From NCBI GenBank assembly GCA_964469815.1, contig CAYXZC010000051.1, positions 1 through 13,851 on the forward strand: 13,851 bases of DNA, given 5' to 3'. The translations under genes were made by a program, and so were the position numbers. Positions 2,841-13,652 of the stretch are shown in pieces. The notes below the pieces were generated by a model that was not told the DNA's origin, ran no database searches, and was given only the letters and a program-made list of their open reading frames with translations. Each line of letters starts with the position of its first letter. Positions within the stretch are counted from its first letter, which is position 1. Source of the DNA: an uncultured Eggerthellaceae bacterium (GTDB lineage: Bacteria > Actinomycetota > Coriobacteriia > Coriobacteriales > Eggerthellaceae).

Positions 2841-3566
2841 TTACAGTCCGAGAACCTTCTTAAGCGAAGAAGCCTTTCTACGGCTAACGTCGATCTTGCG
2901 ATCGACATTGTTGAGGGTGAGAAGCAGCTTGCCCCCTTCGACCGATTCGATCTCTTCCACAGTTGAAAGGTTAACGAGATAAGAACGATGCACGCGGAAG
3001 AACCCATGCCCATCGAGGCGCTTCTCGAGCTGCGCCAAGCTGGCCGTTGAGAAATAACGGTTCGTATCGGTCTGGATGTAGGAATAATCATCGCGAGCCT
3101 CGACGAAGCGGATCTTGTCGATCTCGATGAGGATCTTCTTCTGCGCCTTCTCCACAGGAATGCGCTCGCTCTTCTGAACCTGCGCTTGAAGGGCAACCTG
3201 CTCACGAACGCGAGACACAGCCTGCGCCAGACGCTCAGTCTCAACAGGCTTTTGCAAATAGTCGATCGCGTTCACGCGGAAAGCGTCCATCGCGTGTTCG
3301 CTGTAAGCTGTAACGAAGACAACCGCCGGTGGATACTTCAGATTCTGCAAAGCCTCCGCCAAACGCAGACCCGTAGCCTCCGGCATGTTGATATCCAAGA
3401 ACATCACATCACATGGATACTCTTTGAGCTTCTCGATGGCCTCGCGCACGCCTGCGGCCTCTGCCACGACCTCGACACCGCCGACCTCTCCTAGCAAGTA
3501 AGTGAGCTCTGAGCGCGCTGGTGCTTCATCATCAACAATGATCGCTTTGAGCACAATGTCCTCCAT
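2841..3566 (-). CDS. LytTR-family response regulator: REC receiver domain plus LytTR DNA-binding domain (AgrA/LytR/AlgR type).
   Basis: Translation MEDIVLKAIIVDDEAPARSEL...FLDINMP...VVFVTAYSEHA shows receiver-domain acidic and Thr/Lys motifs. C-terminal ...FFRVHRSYLVNLSTVEEI... is the LytTR signature. I prefer the ATG at 3566-3564 as start because it gives a canonical ~241-aa protein with the DD pair at residues 10-11. The ORF track extends to a TTG at 3647, and an ATG at 3626 preceded by GAGG is an alternative. Stop TAA at 2841-2843. Confidence 0.85.
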   Translation of the reverse strand: MEDIVLKAIIVDDEAPARSELTYLLGEVGGVEVVAEAAGVREAIEKLKEYPCDVMFLDINMPEATGLRLAEALQNLKYPPAVVFVTAYSEHAMDAFRVNAIDYLQKPVETERLAQAVSRVREQVALQAQVQKSERIPVEKAQKKILIEIDKIRFVEARDDYSYIQTDTNRYFSTASLAQLEKRLDGHGFFRVHRSYLVNLSTVEEIESVEGGKLLLTLNNVDRKIDVSRRKASSLKKVLGL

Positions 3567-3732
3567 ATCCTTCGGATGCAGATGACTCGAGAGCAGTTTC
3601 ACGACGTGAGACCGTACTCGAACCATGTGCGTTGACCTCGAAATCAACCGTCAGTCAACAACTGTAGCATCTTTATAGCACGACACGCCGTATTGGAGAT
3701 AGAGTAGATTTGGCGCGTATTTTACGTTTGGC

Positions 3733-3738: not shown

Positions 3739-3845
3739 TAGCCCATTTTGCAACCGTTCGCCGAATAATCTTACCCGTGCACAAGGAAGTTCCATAGGGG
3801 ATTATCTGTCAACAACCGATCGAACAAGCTTCCGCAATGCACCGA

Positions 3846-4832
3846 CTATCTCTTAGGAATACCCTCCAAGACGATGAAACGGGTACCGGATGCCAACAAG
3901 AGCTCATCGCCAGGATGAATCGAAACCACCGTTTCTGTATCGGAGTTGATATCTCGCTGATCATATGGGGCCTCAACCACCGTCTCTGCATGGTCCACAC
4001 CGCTTATGAGCACTGTCCCATGCGTAGAACCAAGCCCCTTAACGAGCCATTCGCCCTCTTCTGAATGCCAGATCAAAAGATGATGACCGGATACATCCGG
4101 ATCCACATCGTTAATCGCCCCTTCACCCAGAGCAAGCGAACCGATCTCAATCCCATCGATATTCGGATCCAACCAGTGAGGATTTCCTGAAAGGAACCCA
4201 TCAACAAGACGCATCAAAGCGAATGTCGGCATCTGCACATGATCCGTAGTCCGCGAATTGGCAGAACAAGATGGTGTTTTCGGAGTGATAAGGGGCGTTG
4301 CCATACCGGCTCCATGAACCCTTTTCGCAAAATCGATGACCTGCGATGCGGCTCTGTTCGCATTGGCGGTGCAGCCAGCTGTGATCAAGAGCACCATCGC
4401 CATTTCCGCACGCTCATTGACAGTGAATCCGCTTTCGTTCGAGAGTCTATGCAGAACGTTCTTATATATGGATACGTCTTGATGGGCCTTGGCAAGTGCC
4501 CAGACCATCTCTTCGCCCTCTTCCCCGCAGATCATATCAAGTATACGCTGACTCGAGAATGCAGTACGCTTCTGTGCTTTCAACCTCGAAACCACCCTGA
4601 GTGCACTCGCAGAATAATCAGCGAAATAATTCTCCTGAATAGAGCCGATCGGAGCATGCACGACGAAGCGTGATAGCCACGTTTTATCGTCGGTGCGACT
4701 CACAGGACTGATACCATCGGAAAGCGGTCTTCCCGACAGGATCAAAGATGCCAGCTCTTTATTGATAATTCCCCCGTAACGCTTCATTATGTCGAAAAGC
4801 GCTTCACATGGGGTAAGATCATCTTTCATCAT
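3846..4832 (-). CDS. FHA-domain protein. C-terminal forkhead-associated phospho-Thr-binding domain, with an N-terminal ~210 aa region of unknown fold.
   Basis: 328-aa ORF. The C-terminus VSGHHLLIWHSEEGEWLVKGLGSTHGTVLISGVDHAETVV...IHPGDELLLASGTRFIV matches the FHA pattern (..SR.HA.I... D.GS.NGT.VN ... L..GD.I.LG...F.F). The tandem start codons ATGATG (4832-4827) overlap the kinase stop TGA (4821-4819) by 14 nt, consistent with translational coupling. Stop TAG at 3846-3848. Confidence 0.75.
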   Translation of the reverse strand: MMKDDLTPCEALFDIMKRYGGIINKELASLILSGRPLSDGISPVSRTDDKTWLSRFVVHAPIGSIQENYFADYSASALRVVSRLKAQKRTAFSSQRILDMICGEEGEEMVWALAKAHQDVSIYKNVLHRLSNESGFTVNERAEMAMVLLITAGCTANANRAASQVIDFAKRVHGAGMATPLITPKTPSCSANSRTTDHVQMPTFALMRLVDGFLSGNPHWLDPNIDGIEIGSLALGEGAINDVDPDVSGHHLLIWHSEEGEWLVKGLGSTHGTVLISGVDHAETVVEAPYDQRDINSDTETVVSIHPGDELLLASGTRFIVLEGIPKR

Positions 4833-6756
4833 CTATCTTTGCTCCTCGAGATGACGGAGTCGAAATATCATCGATTCCATCATACAGCTCGCCACCGGGA
4901 TCGGAGTCCGCATTCAGCTTCACATTCATGCTTTCCAACAATTCGGCCTTGATATTCGATGATCTTGACGGATCGCTCGATCCTGATGATCTCGGAAGAG
5001 CGCGGAATCTTTTACGCATACGTGGTGCATGTACAGGAAAAGCCGTATCTACGACGAACGGACACCATGACATCACCGACACCGCGAAGATCGCCCAACG
5101 ATACAAATCTCCATAAGCCTCCGGATCGAACGCAGCAACATTCGTCAGGAGTATAAGCATAGCGCCTCCCGCAGCGATACCAATACTTCCGCGAACCAAA
5201 CTCGCTACGCTATCCCTTCGTGTTCCACGCGCCAGAACACCCAGAACAACTGGCAAGAAAAGAAGTAGGACCAAAAGCTCGGATCCAAGCCCCTCCAACT
5301 CGATCGAACCGACTTCAACGGAGAGCGGCTCCATTTGGATCAGAAAGGCCATGGTCACCACAACAGCGGCTCCAAGACCTACAGAAAGGCTCTTCCCAAA
5401 AGCGCGGATAAGATTACGCGCATATAGTGAAAACCGTTTGACACCTTTATTGATGAATGGTGCCCGGCAAGGCTCAAGGATCTCTCCACACAATGCACGC
5501 CCGATATTGGATGCGTACGAAGCGCAGAACGAATCCAGCGCATCATGCATCTCTTCCGCTGAAGGACGCTTTTTGGGATCGTCAACAAGGCACGACCGCA
5601 TGAGAGCCATCAAAGGTGCATCCACCTGTGAAAGAGACTCCGATATCTCTTGAGCAGTAGGCGCCGACGCTAATTCGGATATCGTGCGATGCAGAATAAC
5701 AGCCACCTCGGGTTCTCGTCTGAGCACAACGAACAGATCGTCATCTCCATCGTGGGCCGTCTTCGGCCTTGATCCTACGAAGCGAGGGCTTGCGTCCCCA
5801 TATATAAGAAGGCACAGAATGCTCGCTACAGCATATACATCCGAAGCCTGTGTGCATTTAGGGCATTCAGATGCTTTGGTCGCTACATAAGCCGATGGGT
5901 CGACCCTTGTCTCAGGAGCGGCGAATTCGGGCGTAGCGGCACCAAGGAACCCGTGATCGATATCCTCCACCACATCGATTCGCCCATCCGACGATACATA
6001 AGCTGAACTCAGGTCGATCAACCTTATATCGAACATCCCCTCTTGGATCTGCTCTTCGATAGATTGGCGTGATGTGTCGATCATTATATTCCTGAGTGAG
6101 AGATCCCCATGACCTATCTCGCGATCAAGCACACCGCTACGAGCCAGCACATCAAATATATCGCGCCCCAGTCGCGCAGCAACAAGAGGCGAAAGACGTC
6201 CCGAATCATCGATGGACATACGCGCCATCGCCATCAGTAGATCCTCGCCTTCGATCCATTCCATCACAAGGACAGGACGATCTTCCAAGTACGCTCTTCC
6301 GTAAAGCTTTGGATACCCCTTGATCCCCGACAACATACGATGTACTTCATACTCGCGCTCAAAATGAGGGTCGGTCTTTCTGGATGCATCTGACGCAACA
6401 GCCTTGCCAAACGGTTCGGTATCCTCCACGATCTCCGCATCCATCGTTCGGTGCACATCAGCTTTCCTCACTTTCAAAGCGAAATGCTCCCCGAATACAT
6501 TCGTTGCGTGAATGATGCTGCCTGTGCTCCCCTCGCGAGTACGTGAGCGATCTATGAACAGAGTGCTGAATCTCCTACAATATGATTCTCTTTGACCATC
6601 GGAAAGGGTCATAGGAGCACAGAAATCTTCCAAGTAGATTCTTTCAAGGAAAGCAATGGGCTCCTCTTCGAATATCGCTAGAGAGTCGTCTTCCTCTTCG
6701 TCCGTCATCGTAACAGGAAAAGCTTCTACCTGGATGATATCAACATCACGCGCCAT
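4819..6756 (-). CDS. Hanks-type (eukaryotic-like) protein kinase with a 4-helix transmembrane module and a C-terminal tail. The catalytic loop and DFG motif are atypical.
   Basis: 645 aa. Kinase subdomains are recognisable: FALKVRK (beta3 Lys), E in EREYEVHRML (alphaC), catalytic loop GHGDLSLRNIMID (HGD in place of HRD; LSLRN resembles the Tyr-kinase HRDLAARN more than the Ser/Thr HRDLKPEN), IDLSS (DFG replaced by DLS), TPEFAAPE (APE), DVYAVASILCLL (DxWSxG-like), and KRPSAEEM (subdomain XI Arg). Four hydrophobic helices follow: LSVGLGAAVVVTMAFLIQ, LGSELLVLLLFLPVVLGVLA, SIGIAAGGAMLILLTNVAAF, LYRWAIFAVSVMSWCPFVV. The start ATG is 12 nt after the upstream gene's stop. Confidence 0.85.
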   Translation of the reverse strand: MARDVDIIQVEAFPVTMTDEEEDDSLAIFEEEPIAFLERIYLEDFCAPMTLSDGQRESYCRRFSTLFIDRSRTREGSTGSIIHATNVFGEHFALKVRKADVHRTMDAEIVEDTEPFGKAVASDASRKTDPHFEREYEVHRMLSGIKGYPKLYGRAYLEDRPVLVMEWIEGEDLLMAMARMSIDDSGRLSPLVAARLGRDIFDVLARSGVLDREIGHGDLSLRNIMIDTSRQSIEEQIQEGMFDIRLIDLSSAYVSSDGRIDVVEDIDHGFLGAATPEFAAPETRVDPSAYVATKASECPKCTQASDVYAVASILCLLIYGDASPRFVGSRPKTAHDGDDDLFVVLRREPEVAVILHRTISELASAPTAQEISESLSQVDAPLMALMRSCLVDDPKKRPSAEEMHDALDSFCASYASNIGRALCGEILEPCRAPFINKGVKRFSLYARNLIRAFGKSLSVGLGAAVVVTMAFLIQMEPLSVEVGSIELEGLGSELLVLLLFLPVVLGVLARGTRRDSVASLVRGSIGIAAGGAMLILLTNVAAFDPEAYGDLYRWAIFAVSVMSWCPFVVDTAFPVHAPRMRKRFRALPRSSGSSDPSRSSNIKAELLESMNVKLNADSDPGGELYDGIDDISTPSSRGAKIDDER

Positions 6757-6768
6757 ATCGATATGCGC

Positions 6769-7680
6769 CTAAAGCTTGATGGTGGCTGCACGCGCCCGGC
6801 ATTCAGCAAGATAACGTACTTCTCCGTTTGAATTCAGATGAGGCCTTAGGATTCCTGGAGCATTCTGCTTCAGAAAACCATTGACGGTTCGCATCGTCGA
6901 ACATGAATTCGTAAGATCGTTGAAACATGTACTTAGCTTTTGAGCCTGGTCATACCACTTGGACTTATTCAGTACATAGTTTCCGTTATACCTGTAAGAA
7001 CTGACCCTGATACGGGCTTGGTCACACTTATGAAGCAATGCTGCCGCATCCGTTGGAGCACAACTAGCATGCGTTATATTGGGATCGGTCGAATTCATCG
7101 TAGAGTAAAGATGTTCGAAACCCTCGCAAACTTCGTTGTAGTAAGGCTCAAGGTCTGCATAGCATGCAACCAGATGAGCGTGAATTTCCTCTTCTACCTC
7201 AGGGGGTAACGCATCCGATGTCGAAGAGGATCCCGCGCTTCCTCCCGGCTGAGATGGATAACCGCCTGTGTTATCAGGAAGAGCAACGGAGTCAGTTGGA
7301 CCCTGCGAGGTTGAATCCGAACCGGATCCGGATGAATCACCAAGAATGGATTGTATAGATGAGAAAGCAGGGCCGCCTATAAGGGGCGAAAGTCCGAGCG
7401 TACCCCCTTCGCTGACAGCCGAACTGCCATTCGTTGTCTCAAGAGCGTCAGGAGAACTTGCATCCGTGTGCGATTCGGAGGTTTCGGGGGTTTCCTGGTC
7501 GGAGTTGAAGAACGAATCAGCCACAGAAGCCACTTCGAACGGACTAGTTAAGACCGCAGGGATGCTAACGGCATAAGCGATCGCGCTGAACCCAACGAGT
7601 GTCAACGAGAAAACGGCTAACGAGAACAGCACATGGGAAGAAGCTGTCCTGGAGAACTTCAGCTTGTTTGCTCGTTTCAT
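6769..7680 (-). CDS. Secreted or membrane-anchored protein. It has an N-terminal signal/anchor, a Ser/Gly/Thr/Asp/Pro-rich low-complexity linker and a C-terminal 8-Cys domain of unknown function.
   Basis: Start re-assigned to the ATG at 7680-7678 (MKRANKLKFSRTASSHVLFSLAVFSLTLVGFSAIAYA...). It has AGGAG 9 nt upstream and a classic n/h-region signal peptide with AYA-V. The ORF-track extension to 7851 adds 57 non-signal residues across the promoter region and is probably spurious. Linker: ...DSSGSGSDSTSQGPTDS...GGSAGSSSTSD.... The C-terminal ~140 aa carry 8 Cys. Stop TAG at 6769-6771, 12 nt before the kinase ATG, so this is the first gene of the operon. Confidence 0.65.
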   Translation of the reverse strand: MKRANKLKFSRTASSHVLFSLAVFSLTLVGFSAIAYAVSIPAVLTSPFEVASVADSFFNSDQETPETSESHTDASSPDALETTNGSSAVSEGGTLGLSPLIGGPAFSSIQSILGDSSGSGSDSTSQGPTDSVALPDNTGGYPSQPGGSAGSSSTSDALPPEVEEEIHAHLVACYADLEPYYNEVCEGFEHLYSTMNSTDPNITHASCAPTDAAALLHKCDQARIRVSSYRYNGNYVLNKSKWYDQAQKLSTCFNDLTNSCSTMRTVNGFLKQNAPGILRPHLNSNGEVRYLAECRARAATIKL

Positions 7681-7981
7681 AGCTTCGCACTCCTTTTGAA
7701 ATCCATCAAAATAGTTGCACAACCACGCGAAGCTCTCAGCCCCTATAATCTCAAAACGATCTACATCCCGAAAAGAGGGCGTTCGCGCAGTTACCACACT
7801 GTCTTTCAGGATGCATGCAAGCAAACCAACAAAGAAAGCAAACGCCCTCATATCGGTTGGTTATATACATGCTGTCCTATCAAACCTGACCGGATCAGGC
7901 CATCAGTGTGGTACCCATGATTCTATCAAATCAGATGCTGGCGCGCGATGTTGATGCATGAAGATATCGCCGCTCATTCAA

Positions 7982-8043
7982 ATTCGGATTTTGGTAAATA
8001 TTCATTCGGATTTTTGCAGATCTCTATTCGGATTTTGGTAAAA
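7982..8043. repeat. Three direct repeats [A/T]ATTCGGATTTT[G/T]G with exact 22-bp periodicity. Candidate direct-repeat operator, of the kind bound by LytTR-type regulators.
   Basis: Copy 1 ATTCGGATTTTGGTAAA at 7982-7998, copy 2 ATTCGGATTTTTGCAGA at 8004-8020, copy 3 ATTCGGATTTTGGTAAA at 8026-8042. Copies 1 and 3 are 17/17 identical. The phasing of 22 bp is about two helical turns. They lie in the divergent intergenic region between the minus-strand kinase operon (start 7680) and the plus-strand lipoprotein gene (start 8240). Confidence 0.6.
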
Positions 8044-8129
8044 GCTTATCTGTGCATGAGTTTAGCGTGTGAGCTTAGGACGGTTTTAAACTCACGCTTT
8101 TTGTTTCCCAACTCTCTATGTTCCTGCAA

Positions 8130-8183
8130 TCTATGCGCCCTATGAGCCTTTGCCCCCCATCTCCATTCCAAAAGTTGTACAAC
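8130..8183 (+). promoter_or_regulatory. Promoter/operator element A. A conserved ~55-bp segment ending in the perfect palindrome GTTGTACAAC (8174-8183), 57 bp upstream of the lipoprotein gene.
   Basis: TCTATGCGCCCTATGAGCCTTTGCCCCCCATCTCCATTCCAAAAGTTGTACAAC aligns with 9761-9811 (element B), differing by a few substitutions and a 3-bp indel. GTTGTACAAC is its own reverse complement. Confidence 0.45.
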
Positions 8184-8239
8184 CGCATGATCTAATCTAA
8201 GGCGAAAATGCACCTTGCAAATCACAGAGAGGAGCATTG

Positions 8240-8980
8240 ATGAAAAGGATCATGTATATGATATTGGCTTCTTCCTTAGCCATCAGTTTTGGACTTTGCG
8301 GGTGTCAGAGTAACGAAGTAAACCAAGAAACATCGAAGCAAACTCAAGAAGAGCAAACGTCACCCGATGAAGAAACTCAATCCGTCATTGATGAGATCAA
8401 CTCTATAGGAGATGTAACTTTAGAGAAAAAAGAGTTGATCGATTCAACGCGCCAAGCATATGGCTCCTTAAATTCAGAACAAAAGAATCTCGTTGACAAC
8501 TATGATGTCTTAAAAGCCGCCATATCTTCTCTTGATGAGCTTGAAAGAGCCGAAGAAGAGAAAGCAAAGGCTTTTGCAGTGGGAGAAACTGTCGAAGATG
8601 AAGACTTCAGAGTCACGTTAACAAGCGCACAGCTTGATTCGATACTTGAAAGCCCGAATTCACGTACCTCTTGGGAACCAGACAGCAATGCAACATTTGT
8701 GATATTGGAGTTTGACATAGAAGCATTGAATTCGAATCAAATAGCTGTCGATTCGGGTGCGGTATCGAATGTCGTTGCAACCTACAATGGCAACACATAC
8801 AAGGGCTGGGATTACAAATACGTCGTAAGCGAATTATGGCTTTCAGCAAAACGTACGTATTTTGAGGCAAATATGCCGGTACACGTTTATGTATACACCT
8901 CAATCCCTTCGTCAGCTACATCCGGGTCTGTAACGGTGGATATGGATATTGCTGGGCAAGATAAACAGATCGTAATTTGA
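8240..8980 (+). CDS. Lipoprotein of unknown function: lipobox signal peptide, acidic linker, and a C-terminal beta-rich domain. Tentatively DUF4352/DUF5067-like.
   Basis: ATG at 8240 preceded by GGAG 5 nt upstream; the track's TTG at 8237 is disfavoured. N-terminus MKRIMYMILASSLAISFGLCGCQS has positive n-region, hydrophobic core and Cys, giving a lipobox-like LCGC. An E/Q/T-rich linker is followed by ...ATFVILEFDIEALNSNQIAVD... Stop TGA at 8978-8980. Confidence 0.8.
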   Translation: MKRIMYMILASSLAISFGLCGCQSNEVNQETSKQTQEEQTSPDEETQSVIDEINSIGDVTLEKKELIDSTRQAYGSLNSEQKNLVDNYDVLKAAISSLDELERAEEEKAKAFAVGETVEDEDFRVTLTSAQLDSILESPNSRTSWEPDSNATFVILEFDIEALNSNQIAVDSGAVSNVVATYNGNTYKGWDYKYVVSELWLSAKRTYFEANMPVHVYVYTSIPSSATSGSVTVDMDIAGQDKQIVI

Positions 8981-9079
8981 TAAGGACTTATGACCTGAAG
9001 ATTTTTAAGCCACCAACTCAACGCATTGGACAAAAGTTCATGGATTCATGGTATTTGTAGGAAAAGGAAAGGTAGAAAA

Positions 9080-9634
9080 ATGAAGAGAATAACAAAAGCG
9101 GTCGTAGCTGCAGCATGTACGGCACTACTATCCCTGTCGCTATATGCTTGTGGAACGAATTCCAATAATCAATCCGCTTCTGATAATTCCAACAGTTCCA
9201 GTAGCACACAAGCAGAAAACAACTACGATCCAAAAGTTGAAAGCATCGATTATTCCACCGAGCGTGGCAATATCAAATATGAATACGTAGAAAAAGCGAA
9301 TAGCGAGCTCACAAAGAGCGACAATGCTTTGTTGTTCGTGTTCGACTTCACAAACGAGCAAGATGAACCATCTCCTGCTATCTCACCATTCATTATCGAG
9401 TTCTATCAGAATGGAGTAGAACTGAGCGACTCCCCTTCCTATAGCTCTTCCGGCGGAGATCAATATGAACTACTACGTGCCTCTTCTGACAGCGTTATGA
9501 AAGGCAGCACCATTCAGTTCGGACAGCTCGTTGTACCAAAGGATGACAGCCCTATCACCATCACGGTCAAGCCAAATGGGTATTTCTCAGACAATGAATA
9601 CCAAACCATGGAAGTCGCCATTGATTCTTTGTAG
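9080..9634 (+). CDS. Lipoprotein of unknown function, paralogous in architecture to 8240-8980.
   Basis: ATG at 9080 with GGAAAGG 8 nt upstream; the track extension to 9026 is disfavoured. N-terminus MKRITKAVVAAACTALLSLSLYACGTNSNNQSAS is a signal peptide plus Cys. An S/N-rich linker is followed by ...ALLFVFDFTNEQDEPSPAIS...ITITVKPNGYF, which parallels the ATFVILEFD... segment of the upstream lipoprotein. Stop TAG at 9632-9634. Confidence 0.8.
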   Translation: MKRITKAVVAAACTALLSLSLYACGTNSNNQSASDNSNSSSSTQAENNYDPKVESIDYSTERGNIKYEYVEKANSELTKSDNALLFVFDFTNEQDEPSPAISPFIIEFYQNGVELSDSPSYSSSGGDQYELLRASSDSVMKGSTIQFGQLVVPKDDSPITITVKPNGYFSDNEYQTMEVAIDSL

Positions 9635-9703
9635 GATGATAGATGTAACGCCCTTTGGATAAACGCCACCTGCATAAAACGTAAGCATGAATGCATGAAT
9701 TTA

Positions 9704-9741
9704 GTGTGAGGCTGGGGCAGTCCCAGCCTCACACTTTTTTA
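9704..9741 (+). terminator. Strong rho-independent terminator after the second lipoprotein gene.
   Basis: GTGTGAGGCTGGGG (9704-9717), loop CAGT, then CCCAGCCTCACAC (9722-9734), followed by TTTTTT (9735-9740). Confidence 0.85.
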
Positions 9742-9760
9742 TCTTCCTATCCTCCCGCCC

Positions 9761-9811
9761 TCTATGCACCCTACAAGCTTTTGCTCCCCACCCTTCAAAA
9801 AGTTGTACAAC
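9761..9811 (+). promoter_or_regulatory. Promoter/operator element B. A second copy of the ~55-bp element with the palindrome GTTGTACAAC (9802-9811), 60 bp upstream of the SPFH gene start.
   Basis: TCTATGCACCCTACAAGCTTTTGCTCCCCACCCTTCAAAAAGTTGTACAAC. It is followed by the -10-like TAATAT (9812-9817). Confidence 0.45.
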
Positions 9812-9870
9812 TAATATGAGAAATTCGAGGATATGCTTCTCCCAAAAAGTCACCTTTGGAAGAAGCGATA

Positions 9871-11037
9871 ATGAGTCTGATCGATGTCATCAAATATGAG
9901 GGAGATAACCAGACCTTCGTTTGGAAACACCCTAAAGAAGACTTCAACACCGGATCCCAGCTCATAGTTCACGAAGCTCAAGAAGCGATCTTCTTCCTTA
10001 ATGGCCAAGCTCTAGATTCATTTCAACCGGGACGATATGAGCTCGAGACCCAAAACATCCCACTTCTCAATAAAGCAATAAACCTTCCTTCTGGTGGAGA
10101 AAGCCCTTTTCATGCAGAAGTGTATTTCATCAATCTTGTTGAACAGATGGGAATAAGTTGGGGCACGAACTCCAAGATCCAATTCATGGATCCTGAGTTC
10201 AACTTCCCTCTTTCGATCGGCGCTTCAGGAGAAATGGCCTTGGCAGTCCGCGAGCCGAAAAAACTTCTTCTGAAGATAGTGGGAACCGAGGCGATCCTTT
10301 CACAAGATAGTCTGATCAGATACTTCAAATCTTTTCTGCAAACAAGGATCAAGACCGCTATCGCACAGGCGATCCCTGAGAACAACCTATCCATCTTTCA
10401 AATGGATGCGCACCTTGTTGAGCTTTCCAACGAAGTGAAGAAACGCCTTCAATCTGATTTCAATGAATATGGCCTTGAGCTCACTCAGATGATGGTCACC
10501 ACAGTGGTCAAACCTGAAGGGGATCCGATATACGAACAATTCAAAGAGCTTTATTTCCGCCAATATGCAGATGTGAAAGATGCACAGATCAATCAGCAAG
10601 TTGGCGTCATCAATCAGGAGACCATTGCTAAGCAGACTGTTATAGAGGCAAAAGGAATTGCCGAGAAACGACAAGTCGAAGGTTACACCTATCAACAAGA
10701 GCGCGGCTTTGATGTTGCAGAACAAATGGCGCAAAACGAAGCCGTAGGCGAATTCGCGAATATGGGTATCGGTCTTGGAATGATGTCAGGTATTGGGGGC
10801 ACCATGGGCACTGTGGTTGGTGGAGCAGTGTCTGAAGCTATGGGAGATCCAGCGCTGTTCGGAGGAGTCGCTCAAAACGTTCAGAATCAAACCTCTAGTG
10901 CCATGTCTGATTCGAAGCAGCCAATAGCTGTTTCAGGCAACAATGAAGATAAGGCTTTTCGTTTTTGCTCTGGCTGCGGACATCAATTCGCCGATAACGA
11001 TAGATTCTGCCCTCAATGCGGGAAACGGAGGGAATAG
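9871..11037 (+). CDS. SPFH/Band-7 (stomatin-prohibitin-flotillin-HflKC) superfamily protein of the COG4260 type (B. subtilis YdjI-like; 'virion core protein' misnomer family). It carries a C-terminal C4 zinc ribbon.
   Basis: ATG at 9871 (MSLIDVIKYEGDNQTFVWKHP...) has GGAAGAAG 5 nt upstream; the track's TTG at 9856 is disfavoured. N-terminus IDVIKYEGDNQTFVWKHPKEDFNTGSQLIVHEAQEAIFFLNGQALDSFQPGRYELETQNIPLL matches the conserved COG4260 opening (IDVIEW.....L.WR.P.....I.NGA.L.VRESQ.AVFV.EGQ..D.F.PG.H.L.T.N.P.L). A Gly/Met-rich segment follows. The C-terminus FRFCSGCGHQFADNDRFCPQCGKRRE gives CxxC-x10-CxxC. Stop TAG at 11035-11037. Confidence 0.85.
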   Translation: MSLIDVIKYEGDNQTFVWKHPKEDFNTGSQLIVHEAQEAIFFLNGQALDSFQPGRYELETQNIPLLNKAINLPSGGESPFHAEVYFINLVEQMGISWGTNSKIQFMDPEFNFPLSIGASGEMALAVREPKKLLLKIVGTEAILSQDSLIRYFKSFLQTRIKTAIAQAIPENNLSIFQMDAHLVELSNEVKKRLQSDFNEYGLELTQMMVTTVVKPEGDPIYEQFKELYFRQYADVKDAQINQQVGVINQETIAKQTVIEAKGIAEKRQVEGYTYQQERGFDVAEQMAQNEAVGEFANMGIGLGMMSGIGGTMGTVVGGAVSEAMGDPALFGGVAQNVQNQTSSAMSDSKQPIAVSGNNEDKAFRFCSGCGHQFADNDRFCPQCGKRRE

Positions 11038-11043
11038 ATCATT

Positions 11044-11709
11044 ATGGACATCAAAAAGCAACACATTGCTGTTATTGTTCTAGCTATCGGCTTCATTGCA
11101 TACGCATGCATTTGCCTCCTTTTATTCGAAAAAGGTATCGTCTTTTGGGCTGAACTTGGTTTCACCTTTGTAGCCTTTTTGCTCACTGCTTACACAACAC
11201 AACGGCCTGAAAGCAAGAAGCTCTTTTTAAACCTCCCTCTTTATGTGATCGCATCGGTATATCTCACGATTCAGTTGATCATAAGCATCGTTTTCATGGC
11301 GGTGCAAACAGCATGCGAACCATGGTGTTATGTGGTCAGCGTCGCTCTTCTAGCTTTTTATCTATGCATTTTGTTAGCCACTCGGGCAACCGTTCAGCAT
11401 ATTGGTGAAGTTGATAAGAGCATCCAACAGAATACAGCTTTCATCAAGAATCTGATCTTGAAGCTGGAAGCATTGAGGGATGAAGTCGACGGATCGCGAC
11501 AGGAAGAAATCGAAGATTTGATCTCTCTTGCCCGCTATTCGAATTTGCAATCCTGTGAAGCTTCACGAGAGATCGAAATAAGCATCACAGAATCTGTGGA
11601 AGAACTTGATTCGGCTATTCAAAACAACGATCGCGATGCCATATCCGAGGCAGTAGATCAGATATCAAAACAGCTCAGACAACGCGACCGAGTTTGTAAG
11701 GTGAAGTAG
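11044..11709 (+). CDS. Integral membrane protein with 4 predicted TM helices and a C-terminal acidic coiled-coil cytoplasmic tail. No recognisable family.
   Basis: ATG 6 nt after the SPFH stop; GGAGGG upstream. Hydrophobic helices: IAVIVLAIGFIAYACICLLLF, LGFTFVAFLLTAYTT, LPLYVIASVYLTIQLIISIVFMAV, VVSVALLAFYLCILLA. The tail has heptad-like charged character (...LKLEALRDEVDGSRQEEIEDLISLAR...). Stop TAG at 11707-11709. Confidence 0.75.
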   Translation: MDIKKQHIAVIVLAIGFIAYACICLLLFEKGIVFWAELGFTFVAFLLTAYTTQRPESKKLFLNLPLYVIASVYLTIQLIISIVFMAVQTACEPWCYVVSVALLAFYLCILLATRATVQHIGEVDKSIQQNTAFIKNLILKLEALRDEVDGSRQEEIEDLISLARYSNLQSCEASREIEISITESVEELDSAIQNNDRDAISEAVDQISKQLRQRDRVCKVK

Positions 11710-11715
11710 CGATTA

Positions 11716-12192
11716 ATGCCTCGGATTCCTGCACATAAAATCGAAGAAAAAGCGATTAACCTTATTCGCTCAAATGTTGCTTTATTTGATGCGTTATATC
11801 GTGAGGTATCTCATAGAGATTATGGTATAGATGCAGTTATTGAACTCTTCGACCATGACGAAATAACAGGTCGACTCATTCTATTACAAGTAAAAGGATC
11901 AGAGTCAAGATATACGATCGGCACAAGATCCGGTGTTGTATCCTGTCAAGTATCGCAAGGAACACTTAAGTATTTGAATCAAAACAACATACCTGTTGTT
12001 CTTGTTGCCGTAGACATAGCAAATCAATGTTTCTTTTACACGTGTCTTGCAGACACTGAAGTGGTTAATAGAAATGTCAATCAGCCAACCGTTCATTTAA
12101 TTGCGGAAAACGTATGTCAAAGAGAAGAATCTACTTTTACAGAATGGCTCAAAGAACTAGCAGAAGACTATTACGGAAGGCGGCAACAATGA
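11716..12192 (+). CDS. Small Mrr-like PD-(D/E)xK restriction-endonuclease-fold protein (DUF4365-like).
   Basis: 158 aa. The core HRDYGIDAVIELFDHDEITGRLILLQVKGSES matches the Mrr_cat/DUF4365 pattern (E..DyGiDg.iE ... h.vQvKs): Asp on the first strand, then an (E/Q)xK strand. ATG at 11716 is 6 nt after the upstream stop. Stop TGA at 12190-12192 overlaps the next ATG as ATGA. GC content is markedly lower than in the rest of the window. Confidence 0.7.
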   Translation: MPRIPAHKIEEKAINLIRSNVALFDALYREVSHRDYGIDAVIELFDHDEITGRLILLQVKGSESRYTIGTRSGVVSCQVSQGTLKYLNQNNIPVVLVAVDIANQCFFYTCLADTEVVNRNVNQPTVHLIAENVCQREESTFTEWLKELAEDYYGRRQQ

Positions 12193-13652
12193 AAGCAATG
12201 CAGTGCGAGCTTTGTGGTGCAACGGAGATTGTCAAAGATGGAGATTTTTTTGTCTGCCAGAGTTGTGGGATGAAATACACTCCTGAAAGCGCAAAAAAGA
12301 TGGTGATTGAAGGTGTTGTTCAGGTTGAGGGAACGATTTCTTTAGATGAAAGTTTAAAGCTTAAAAACTACATCGATCGCGCTGAATCATTACTAGATGA
12401 AAAAAGATATTTGGAAGCATACCAGGAATGCCGTGAAGGATTGCACATCGATTCCATGAACCCCTATCTAAGAATCATTGCTCTTTTTGCTGATTATGCG
12501 CCAATGTCTAAGGAACTCGATTGGTGTAAAAAAGGTGAAAAGATCGGAGAAGAAACAAGCTCTTGCCTGAAAGAGATTCATAATCAAATTGGCGACTGTG
12601 AAGATTTCGGTAAAGTGTGCGCGAAGTATTTATCTCTAATTAAAGCATTAGAAACAGAGAACTATTTCGCATGTAGAACTGCTGCAAAACAAGCTGATGT
12701 AGAATTGATCGCTGTTTTGGGCACGATCAACATAAATGGTAGTTACAGCGATTCTTCTCGAATGAAGGACAAATATGCGATAGAAGCCAAGAAAAAGGAT
12801 GCAGAGAACGGGCTTTTTGATGGATTCATAGGTACTGCAGAATTAGCTCAAACGATACTCGAATTAATTAAAGATCCAATTCAAATTGGACGACAAAATC
12901 TATGGACAATGCATGTCTATACAGAAGGTGCCAGCAAATTCGATGAACCACTATATCAATCTCGGTTAAAAAAGATACAACAGGAATTTTTTAAATACAC
13001 CAAAATGTGTGATGATTTCGAGGAAAAGCAGAAAAAGATCGAACAAGAAAAGAAAGCGAAAGAATACTGGGATAAACATCCAGATAAGAAGATAGCCATC
13101 AATAGTCTGATTGAAACCAAATCTAAAGAGCAAGAAGAGATAGATGAACAAATTCGACAACTGCAAGAAAAGATTGATAGAGTAAACCAAGAAGTTCCTC
13201 TACGGTTCGACGATGCTAATTGGGATATTAAAAAGAATTTGCTACAGAATGAATTAGAGGAAATAGCGCAAAAGATAAGCGGCCTCTCAGTATTTAGTTT
13301 TAAAGAAAAGAAGAAACTCGATGCATTGCATATTGAGAAAACTGAACAATTGGATCAATTAAACTCAGAAAAGAAGAAAGCGTTATCAATCGCAAAAAGA
13401 AAACAATCTGACGCAATAAAAGAACTCACTTCTCCTCTAGAAGAGGAGAAGGATCGATTGATTACTAAACGAAAATCTTTGGAAAAACTAATTAATAAGA
13501 AGACTGAAGAACTTGAAAACCCAATACCAACTCAAATACCCAAAAAAGAATATCATAGCGAAAACACTTCGGAACATGCGCCCTCAAATTTGAACGTAAA
13601 TGTCATTAATCAAAGATGTATCACAAAAAATGGCGGAAAAGATAAAGTGTGA
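12189..13652 (+). CDS. Zinc-ribbon protein with an alpha-helical (TPR-like?) middle region and a ~170-aa Lys/Glu-rich coiled coil. Unknown function.
   Basis: Preferred start ATG at 12189 (MKAMQCELCGATEIVKDGDFFVCQSCGMKY), 8 nt after GGAAGG and overlapping the upstream stop. The track extension to 12114 runs through the preceding gene and is unlikely. CxxC-x14-CxxC N-terminal zinc ribbon. Helical segment LDEKRYLEAYQECREGLHIDSMNPYLRIIALFADYA. Residues ~290-460 are dominated by E/K/Q heptads (EKQKKIEQEKKAKEYW...EQIRQLQEKIDRVNQE...). Stop TGA at 13650-13652. Confidence 0.75.
   Translation: MKAMQCELCGATEIVKDGDFFVCQSCGMKYTPESAKKMVIEGVVQVEGTISLDESLKLKNYIDRAESLLDEKRYLEAYQECREGLHIDSMNPYLRIIALFADYAPMSKELDWCKKGEKIGEETSSCLKEIHNQIGDCEDFGKVCAKYLSLIKALETENYFACRTAAKQADVELIAVLGTININGSYSDSSRMKDKYAIEAKKKDAENGLFDGFIGTAELAQTILELIKDPIQIGRQNLWTMHVYTEGASKFDEPLYQSRLKKIQQEFFKYTKMCDDFEEKQKKIEQEKKAKEYWDKHPDKKIAINSLIETKSKEQEEIDEQIRQLQEKIDRVNQEVPLRFDDANWDIKKNLLQNELEEIAQKISGLSVFSFKEKKKLDALHIEKTEQLDQLNSEKKKALSIAKRKQSDAIKELTSPLEEEKDRLITKRKSLEKLINKKTEELENPIPTQIPKKEYHSENTSEHAPSNLNVNVINQRCITKNGGKDKV

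Follow-up and report, generated by a model that had tools for sequence, protein, structure and literature searches.

Bacterial operators are often recognized by their symmetry, and the question raised by the locus studied here is what one such symmetrical sequence does. The locus is a 13,851-nt stretch of DNA, a complete contig, from an uncultured Eggerthellaceae bacterium (hereafter the window), in which a perfect 10-bp palindrome, GTTGTACAAC, stands in front of both a two-gene lipoprotein operon and a cassette starting with an SPFH gene. A third, imperfect copy lies next to a divergent operon for a membrane protein, a Ser/Thr kinase and an FHA protein (the kinase/FHA operon). Comparison with related loci leads us to favor, with moderate confidence, the reading that an inverted repeat of 18-20 bp, with the palindrome as its core, binds a dimeric activator and so replaces the −35 element, in an arrangement of the class II type.

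The two exact copies are located at 8174-8183 and 9802-9811, as a sequence-only reading of the window had reported. The third copy, GTTGCACAAC, matches in nine of ten positions with CA at its centre and spans 7714-7723, one base further right than the 7713-7722 given in that reading. At most one mismatch being allowed, the window contains three matches to the palindrome, against 0.14 expected, and none of 200 shuffled sequences reached three. Two motifs listed earlier as related, GTTGTTGAC / GTCAACAAC at 3654-3662 and 3808-3816, are present but belong elsewhere: they form a direct repeat on the same strand, 154 bp apart (0.06 expected). This GTCAACAAC pair (3654, 3808) sits upstream of a gene for a LytTR response regulator, and a perfect TTGACA lies within its second copy, on the minus strand. 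Because neither copy has the second arm or a −10 hexamer at +20, we treat them as unrelated to the box described below.

A 20-bp box at a fixed distance from the −10 hexamer

We collected 41 distinct GTTGNNCAAC sites from non-redundant related Coriobacteriia loci, the scans covering approximately ±10 kb around each operon. The conserved unit in these sites is a quasi-palindrome of ~20 bp, aaAwT-GTTG-YR-CAAC-AawTt, followed after exactly 20 nt by a TAnnnT hexamer; as a pattern, box and hexamer read AAWTGTTGYRCAACAWTT-N15-TANNNT. TAnnnT is found exactly 20 nt from the palindrome on one strand in 29 of the 41 sites, where ~1.3 would be expected by chance, and in the histogram of spacings from 5 to 40 nt every spacing other than 20 nt is represented by 0-5 sites. 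Of the other 12 sites, most have a near-consensus hexamer (AATAAT, GAAAAT) 20 nt away or else a −10 hexamer at a distance of 18-19 nt. The flanks of the box are A/T-rich and roughly symmetric (AAAwT...AawTT), and several sites, e.g. in loci L019, L043 and L048, are perfect 20-bp palindromes. No consensus across genomes was found beyond ~6 bp upstream of the core. The functional unit is therefore not the 55-bp element proposed in the sequence-only reading: what is conserved between genomes is the ~20-bp box and the −10 hexamer at its fixed distance.

Neither a −35-like hexamer nor a TGn extended −10 was found at the expected positions in a position-frequency table of the related loci; the bases where a −35 would be are AACAAA-like. 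Both arms are evidently needed, as variants with a mismatch in one arm were not enriched (33 relaxed matches, ~24 of them exact, versus 12.7 in shuffles). Of 35 oriented sites, 31 have YR as the central step. Copies from one genome share the same step in 17 of 23 pairs (6.05 expected; one of 20,000 shuffles reached 17). Either the centre must be a flexible step whose specificity co-evolves, or the copies evolve in concert; both would fit.

The window has three such units (boxes 1 to 3; Table 1). The arrangement of box 3 and its TATAAT hexamer recurs in L001, L012, L013, L014, L043, L045, L047 and L048. The GAAAAT downstream of box 1 is a weak −10 hexamer, and the identical hexamer occurs at equal offset in L020. 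The TATGCT of box 2 has its equivalents in TATGAT (L005) and TATCAT (L017), both upstream of SPFH genes. The leaders predicted for boxes 1 and 2 span 24-27 nt and contain Shine-Dalgarno sequences. Because these leaders are short, the palindromes lie at similar distances from their start codons, as was noted before; the distances are 56 nt to the ATG at 8240 and 59 nt to the ATG at 9871 rather than 57 and 60 bp.

Three features point to a dimeric DNA-binding protein in stereospecific contact with RNA polymerase: a spacing that is exact to the base pair, symmetric arms and flanks, and a missing −35. This protein would be an activator of the class II type or a −35 substitute. Two marks of a class II-type promoter, an inverted repeat at fixed distance and the lack of an own −35 or extended −10, are found here. 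The site would lie at about −42 to −33, centred near −37.5, with the TAnnnT hexamer exactly 20 bp downstream, and the bound dimer would substitute for the −35 contact and recruit RNA polymerase. Three promoters in the window would thereby be switched together: those of a structured small RNA (box 3), the two-gene lipoprotein operon (box 1) and the SPFH cassette (box 2). What the comparison shows directly is the motif with its geometry, conservation, genomic association and classes of downstream genes; from these we infer that the box activates and does not repress, that it is linked to the kinase, and where the transcription start sites (TSSs) lie. The palindrome had been taken as the mark of a dimeric helix-turn-helix operator; its symmetry and its association with promoters stand, while the single-base-pair spacing and the missing −35 point away from a generic operator.

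The box accompanies the kinase/FHA operon

The closest relatives of the window are metagenome-assembled genomes labelled Eggerthellaceae. An exact-protein look-up of the SPFH gene product returned no record, and homologues were used instead. In L001-L004, whose SPFH proteins are 93-94% identical to that of the window, all three palindromes are kept while the spacers around them have diverged freely. The third palindrome is a perfect GTTGTACAAC in these four loci, and its TA centre is also found in L014. L005 (SPFH 87% identical) carries three copies with the core GTTGCGCAAC, which precede genes for a choline-binding-repeat protein, the SPFH protein and the membrane-protein/kinase/FHA operon. 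The palindrome was not found beside SPFH homologues of 71-82% identity that lack the kinase operon (L006-L010, 87 kb of control loci). Thus, the box goes with the kinase/FHA module and not with SPFH as such.

An alignment of the FHA protein retrieved 29 genome loci, mostly from Eggerthellaceae, in which the kinase/FHA operon is conserved. GTTGNNCAAC is frequent in these loci; it typically marks the start of the operon, ~2.7-3 kb upstream of the FHA gene, and more copies occur within a few kilobases. The same clustering near the kinase operon is seen in loci fetched independently through the RNA described below. Each of the 41 sites has a kinase/FHA operon or the RNA nearby, and the majority point towards the start of a gene. 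The sequence-only reading had named dispersal as a REP/MITE-type repeat as the finding that would speak against a promoter role; within the ~±10 kb scanned around each operon we see no dispersed repeat, the 41 sites being in intergenic promoter positions around one type of locus. No recurrent alternative palindrome was found in the FHA loci without the box.

The genes behind the box are an envelope-type set. They encode lipoproteins (window, L001, L016, L025), signal-peptide proteins (L005, L013, L019, L045), small proteins with two transmembrane segments (L014, L019, L043, L047), a TM2 protein together with Zn-ribbon/DUF4870 proteins (L031), SPFH proteins (window, L001, L005, L017) and the membrane protein that is the first gene product of the kinase operon (L005, L018, L019, L037). 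Cultured carriers of the box include Adlercreutzia agrestimuris DSM 109821 (L031), with four boxes, and Enterorhabdus sp. P55 (L025). The earlier proposal of a regulon joining the lipoproteins, the SPFH cassette and the signalling operon is borne out to the extent that one cis-element precedes all of them across many genomes. Since the kinase operon is always adjacent, the box is probably the transcriptional output of the kinase module and defines an envelope-related regulon.

Several contigs with the same kinase/FHA operon (L033-L039) are labelled Prevotella, Bacteroidaceae, Succinivibrio, Sphaerochaetaceae, Christensenellaceae or Subdoligranulum, which probably reflects mis-binning; apart from L037, no box was found in them. 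In the papers searched we found no description of the motif: strings of the three core variants matched primers only, and nothing pertinent turned up on Eggerthella in connection with FHA and promoter motifs.

The third box precedes a candidate structured RNA

The third copy had been noted ~35 bp upstream of the minus-strand kinase-operon start and tentatively linked to that operon. In the window, however, box 3 faces the plus strand, away from the operon, and a candidate non-coding RNA lies downstream. The stretch following its TATAAT is non-coding and 97-100% identical to L001/L004. A coding role of 7760-8110 was rejected: the open reading frames are not conserved, with ATG changed to ATA or interrupted by a stop in L001. 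The first ~185 nt (7765-7947) are conserved in L012, L013 and L014 at 83-86% DNA identity, and the kinases encoded next to the RNA in these loci are only 35-57% identical in protein sequence.

A covariance model of this segment, R1, has 15 matches, which are strong in the window, L001, L012, L013, L014, L043, L045, L047 and L048 and weaker in L020, L041, L042, L044, L046 and L049. The matches in L043, L045, L047 and L048 came after a pattern scan of metagenomes. The alignment contains 61 double-change cells, compared with 24.7 ± 3.6 in shuffles and at most 12 in slid controls, and this covariation supports several helices. A long-range helix pairs 7788-7801 with 7904-7913; because it served as the search pattern, its invariance is built in by construction. 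Furthermore, GAGGGC at 7775-7780 may form a pseudoknot with GCCCUC at 7844-7849, one pair of which covaries as CG/GC/UA, and the RNA carries a C/A-rich loop, AAGCAAACCAACAAAGAAAGCAAAC. Folded as a single sequence, 7758-8108 shows no unusual stability (z = −1.25); covariation is the sole support for structure. No match to Rfam 15 was found for the RNA in the window and the homologous loci (E ≤ 1). L041 has at 3458-3625 (+) a sub-threshold match to RF02864 (Enterococcus sRNA_0030), scoring 41 bits versus a gathering score of 123.

A box with TATAAT precedes the RNA in all nine strong homologues, and the RNA is divergent beside the kinase operon in these homologues wherever the contig reaches far enough. 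As in the window, a second box follows the RNA in L043 and L048. Judged by its conservation and covariation, the RNA is a candidate new RNA family, possibly pseudoknotted.

Between the RNA core and the next box, the window contains three copies of a 17-nt repeat, ATTCGGATTTTGGTAAA. The triple repeat is conserved in L001, the one other locus in which it occurs, and absent from L012, L013 and L014. Its 22-bp period matches the periodicity of LytTR-type sites, and a LytTR regulator gene is located 4 kb away.

A probable duplication of a terminator-promoter junction

A 30-mer, TCTATGCRCCCTAYRAGCYTTTGCYCCCCA, occurs at 8130-8159 and again at 9761-9790 (0 expected). The duplication around boxes 1 and 2 that had been described as ~55 bp long is real but extends over ~150 bp: the alignment includes the upstream hairpins with their T-runs, a C-rich stretch, and the end TTC(A)AAAAGTTGTACAAC. 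The hairpin of the second copy is the strong intrinsic terminator of the lipoprotein operon, and that of the first is its decayed counterpart (Table 1), which is possibly the 3′ end of the RNA transcript.

Only the window, L001 and, partly, L014 share the C-rich segment and the hairpin. The cargo between the two copies differs among near-identical strains, being two lipoprotein genes in the window and one unrelated 311-amino-acid lipoprotein gene in L001. From these sequence comparisons, the similarity over 55-150 bp is best read as a duplicated terminator-promoter junction flanking exchangeable lipoprotein cargo, not as an extended functional element. The long repeat may provide homology for recombination.

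Activator site or an alternative

Several points weigh against the activator site. The promoter assignment is drawn from sequence geometry. About half of the loci with the FHA operon (Slackia and others, among L022-L039) have no box, and the distribution of the box is a view of the ~±10 kb around each operon rather than of whole genomes. The invariance of the arms is partly built in, because the GTTGNNCAAC sites were collected by requiring both arms. The GTTG and CAAC cores are 2 bp apart, which is unusually close for classical helix-turn-helix dimers unless the A/T flanks belong to the half-sites. Finally, no consistently adjacent regulator gene was found, and no transcription-factor gene besides that of LytTR recurs in the examined neighbourhoods.

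The rival that fares best, although we regard it as unlikely, is a repressor operator, whereby a dimeric repressor would occlude the −35 region and silence the envelope genes and the RNA as long as no signal came. A palindromic site overlapping the polymerase contact region suits such a protein. Moreover, the divergent kinase operon of the window, L012 and L014 has the box 33-65 bp upstream, with a TAT(T/A)T(T/A/G) hexamer directly adjoining the box on the operon side; repression is most plausible at this divergent kinase promoter, which must overlap the box in the three loci. However, a repressor operator does not require a −10 spacing that holds to the single base pair in unrelated genes and in different genomes, which is what the 29 sites at 20 nt against 0-5 elsewhere display, and the promoters are without the −35 or extended −10 for unaided activity.

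The box could also be the −35 element of an alternative sigma factor, its CAAC arm acting as an AAC-type core and its symmetry being incidental. Promoters of extracytoplasmic function (ECF) sigma factors typically have such a core, and this idea would account for the fixed distance to the downstream element and for the absence of a housekeeping −35. We consider it improbable all the same: arms and flanks are symmetric, variants with a single half-site show no enrichment, the downstream element is TAnnnT as in housekeeping promoters instead of an ECF-type CGT motif, the 20-nt gap after CAAC exceeds usual sigma spacers, and no sigma or anti-sigma gene was seen in the examined loci. Least probable of all is a non-regulatory repeat, i.e. 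a duplication scar, a REP/MITE-like element or a recombination site exchanging lipoprotein and kinase cassettes: copies 1 and 2 do lie in ~150-bp direct repeats around strain-variable cargo, the kinase operon is also swapped between strains, and related SPFH cassettes elsewhere follow a serine-recombinase gene, but conservation across genera is limited to the 20-bp box and the −10 while the flanks diverge, polarity and distance to genes are strict, terminal inverted repeats and target duplications were not found, the window has no recombinase, and the resolvase-linked SPFH loci have no box.

The LytTR regulator was rejected as the binder because of its distribution and the type of repeat: it is absent within 10 kb in most box-bearing loci and present only in the rpoB-linked version of the island, and the LytTR family binds direct 9-10-bp repeats with 12-13-bp spacing (~21-22-bp period), whereas the arms of the box are inverted around a centre of 2 bp. 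As for the FHA protein, it has the FHA domain of SARP/EmbR-type regulators and lacks their winged-helix and BTAD module; its N-terminal domain is all-helical, and neither a recognizable DNA-binding fold nor a SARP or winged-helix/BTAD match was found in it. Speculatively, and with low confidence, the locus might represent an undescribed pathway, in which a hypervariable membrane sensor and the Ser/Thr kinase act via an FHA protein with a new helical N-terminal domain. The FHA protein or an unlinked partner would then bind GTTG-YR-CAAC as a −35 substitute and switch on the envelope regulon and a new pseudoknotted regulatory RNA.

Genomic context of the window

The features of the window are listed in Table 1. 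GC content falls from ~0.62 in rpoB to 0.34-0.45 towards the right end of the window, which fits an acquired island inserted upstream of rpoB. Between the window and L001 (4479-8241), the proteins of the kinase operon are only 49% (FHA protein), 34% (kinase) and 30% (membrane protein) identical, while the flanking LytTR, DUF4365 and 512-amino-acid proteins are 99-100% identical. Going by these identities, the divergence of the operon looks like allelic replacement of a hypervariable sensor module, and such strong variation between near-identical strains hints at diversifying selection on the sensor.

In L006-L010 the SPFH cassette is located directly behind a small serine recombinase (resolvase) gene, often in islands rich in integrase and abortive-infection genes, which suggests that the cassette is mobile or invertible in these genomes. 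The island in the window may have a defence flavour. Its DUF4365 protein (11716-12192) matches the PADLOC model of an Argonaute-associated restriction endonuclease (E = 2e-16), and the kinase weakly matches the PADLOC defence kinases mad6, MkoA and PD-T4-6. PADLOC found no defined defence system in the window, only these generic kinase and DUF4365 nuclease matches.

Table 1. Coordinates of the features of the window and of the RNA homologues
Feature	Position	Strand	Remarks
rpoB, 5′ part	left end	−	
LytTR response regulator	2841-3647	−	
FHA protein	3846-4832	−	Pfam
Ser/Thr kinase	4819-6756	−	Pfam
Membrane protein	6769-7680	−	real start ATG 7680, good ribosome-binding site
Intergenic region	7681-8239		560 bp
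Box 3, AAATA-GTTGCACAAC-CACGC	7709-7728	+	faces away from kinase operon
Box 3 −10 hexamer, TATAAT	7744-7749	+	exactly 20 nt past box; predicted TSS ~7756, 9 nt before the RNA model match at 7765
Candidate structured small RNA	7765-7947	+	conservation, covariance model R1, covariation
Three 17-nt repeats	7982-8042	+	22-bp spacing; between RNA core and copy 1
Weak hairpin + T-run	8052-8105	+	decayed counterpart of 9703-9740; aligns with 9695-9745; −12.4 kcal/mol, z = −0.65
C-rich segment, copy 1	8130-8168	+	left part of 55-bp element
Box 1, CAAAA-GTTGTACAAC-CGCAT	8169-8188	+	core 8174-8183
Box 1 −10-like hexamer, GAAAAT	8204-8209	+	20 nt past box; predicted TSS ~8216, 24 nt before ATG 8240
Lipoprotein gene 1	8240-8980	+	lipobox N-terminus
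Lipoprotein gene 2 (DUF5067)	9080-9634	+	lipobox N-terminus; DUF5067 E = 3.6e-11
Strong intrinsic terminator of lipoprotein operon	9703-9740	+	15-bp stem + T-run; −29 kcal/mol, z = −7.2
C-rich segment, copy 2	9761-9796	+	counterpart of copy 1 segment
Box 2, AAAAA-GTTGTACAAC-TAATA	9797-9816	+	core 9802-9811; identical in L001-L004
Box 2 −10 hexamer, TATGCT	9832-9837	+	20 nt past box; predicted TSS ~9844, 27 nt before ATG 9871
SPFH/Band_7_1 protein with Zn ribbon	9871-11037	+	Pfam
221-amino-acid, DUF4365 and 512-amino-acid proteins	11044-13652	+	rest of SPFH cassette (9871-13652); synteny in L001-L005
RNA homologue, L001	8351-8533		R1 match
RNA homologue, L012	6963-7151	−	R1 match
RNA homologue, L013	7045-7232	−	R1 match
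RNA homologue, L014	6906-7101	−	R1 match

Comparison with known systems

The Eggerthellaceae (Eggerthella, Adlercreutzia, Enterorhabdus, Slackia) are important drug- and diet-metabolizing Actinobacteria of the gut, and to our knowledge almost nothing is known of their promoters and regulons. A promoter box defined to the base pair is a handle on its regulator and a route into a Ser/Thr-kinase-linked envelope response, and it could serve as a native inducible promoter. The finding would change paradigms only if the regulator turned out to be an FHA protein of a new kind, one that binds DNA or recruits polymerase.

At class II activator-dependent promoters of the CRP/FNR type, the site is centred near −41.5 and overlaps the −35. 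The box resembles them in the inverted repeat for a dimer at a fixed distance from the −10, the replacement of a missing −35 and the A/T-rich flanks. It differs in that its arms, AAATGTTG-N2-CAACATTT, are 2 bp apart while those of the CRP consensus, AAATGTGA-N6-TCACATTT, are 6 bp apart, and in that its centre lies near −37.5. In addition, no CRP/FNR-family gene is linked to the box, and activation is here a prediction.

The set of genes recalls envelope-stress regulons that comprise SPFH/PspA-type proteins and small RNAs, such as the sigma-W-dependent pspA-ydjGHI of Bacillus subtilis and the sigma-E regulon of E. coli with MicA/RybB. Likewise, a single promoter type here serves SPFH/Band_7_1 proteins, Zn-ribbon membrane proteins, lipoproteins and a small RNA. 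Those regulons use ECF sigma factors and asymmetric −35/−10 elements, whereas the box is palindromic with a housekeeping-type −10 and its input is apparently a Ser/Thr kinase. A signalling parallel is PknH-EmbR of Mycobacterium tuberculosis, in which a Ser/Thr kinase reportedly phosphorylates an FHA-containing SARP activator of cell-envelope genes. Unlike EmbR, the FHA protein of the window has a different, all-helical N-terminal domain, and the cis-element is an inverted repeat instead of the direct heptamer repeats of the EmbR-type system. The kind of element is known, in that other local regulons are defined by a palindromic, promoter-proximal transcription-factor box; what is new is this particular box, in a poorly studied clade, coupled to a kinase/FHA module and a candidate RNA family.

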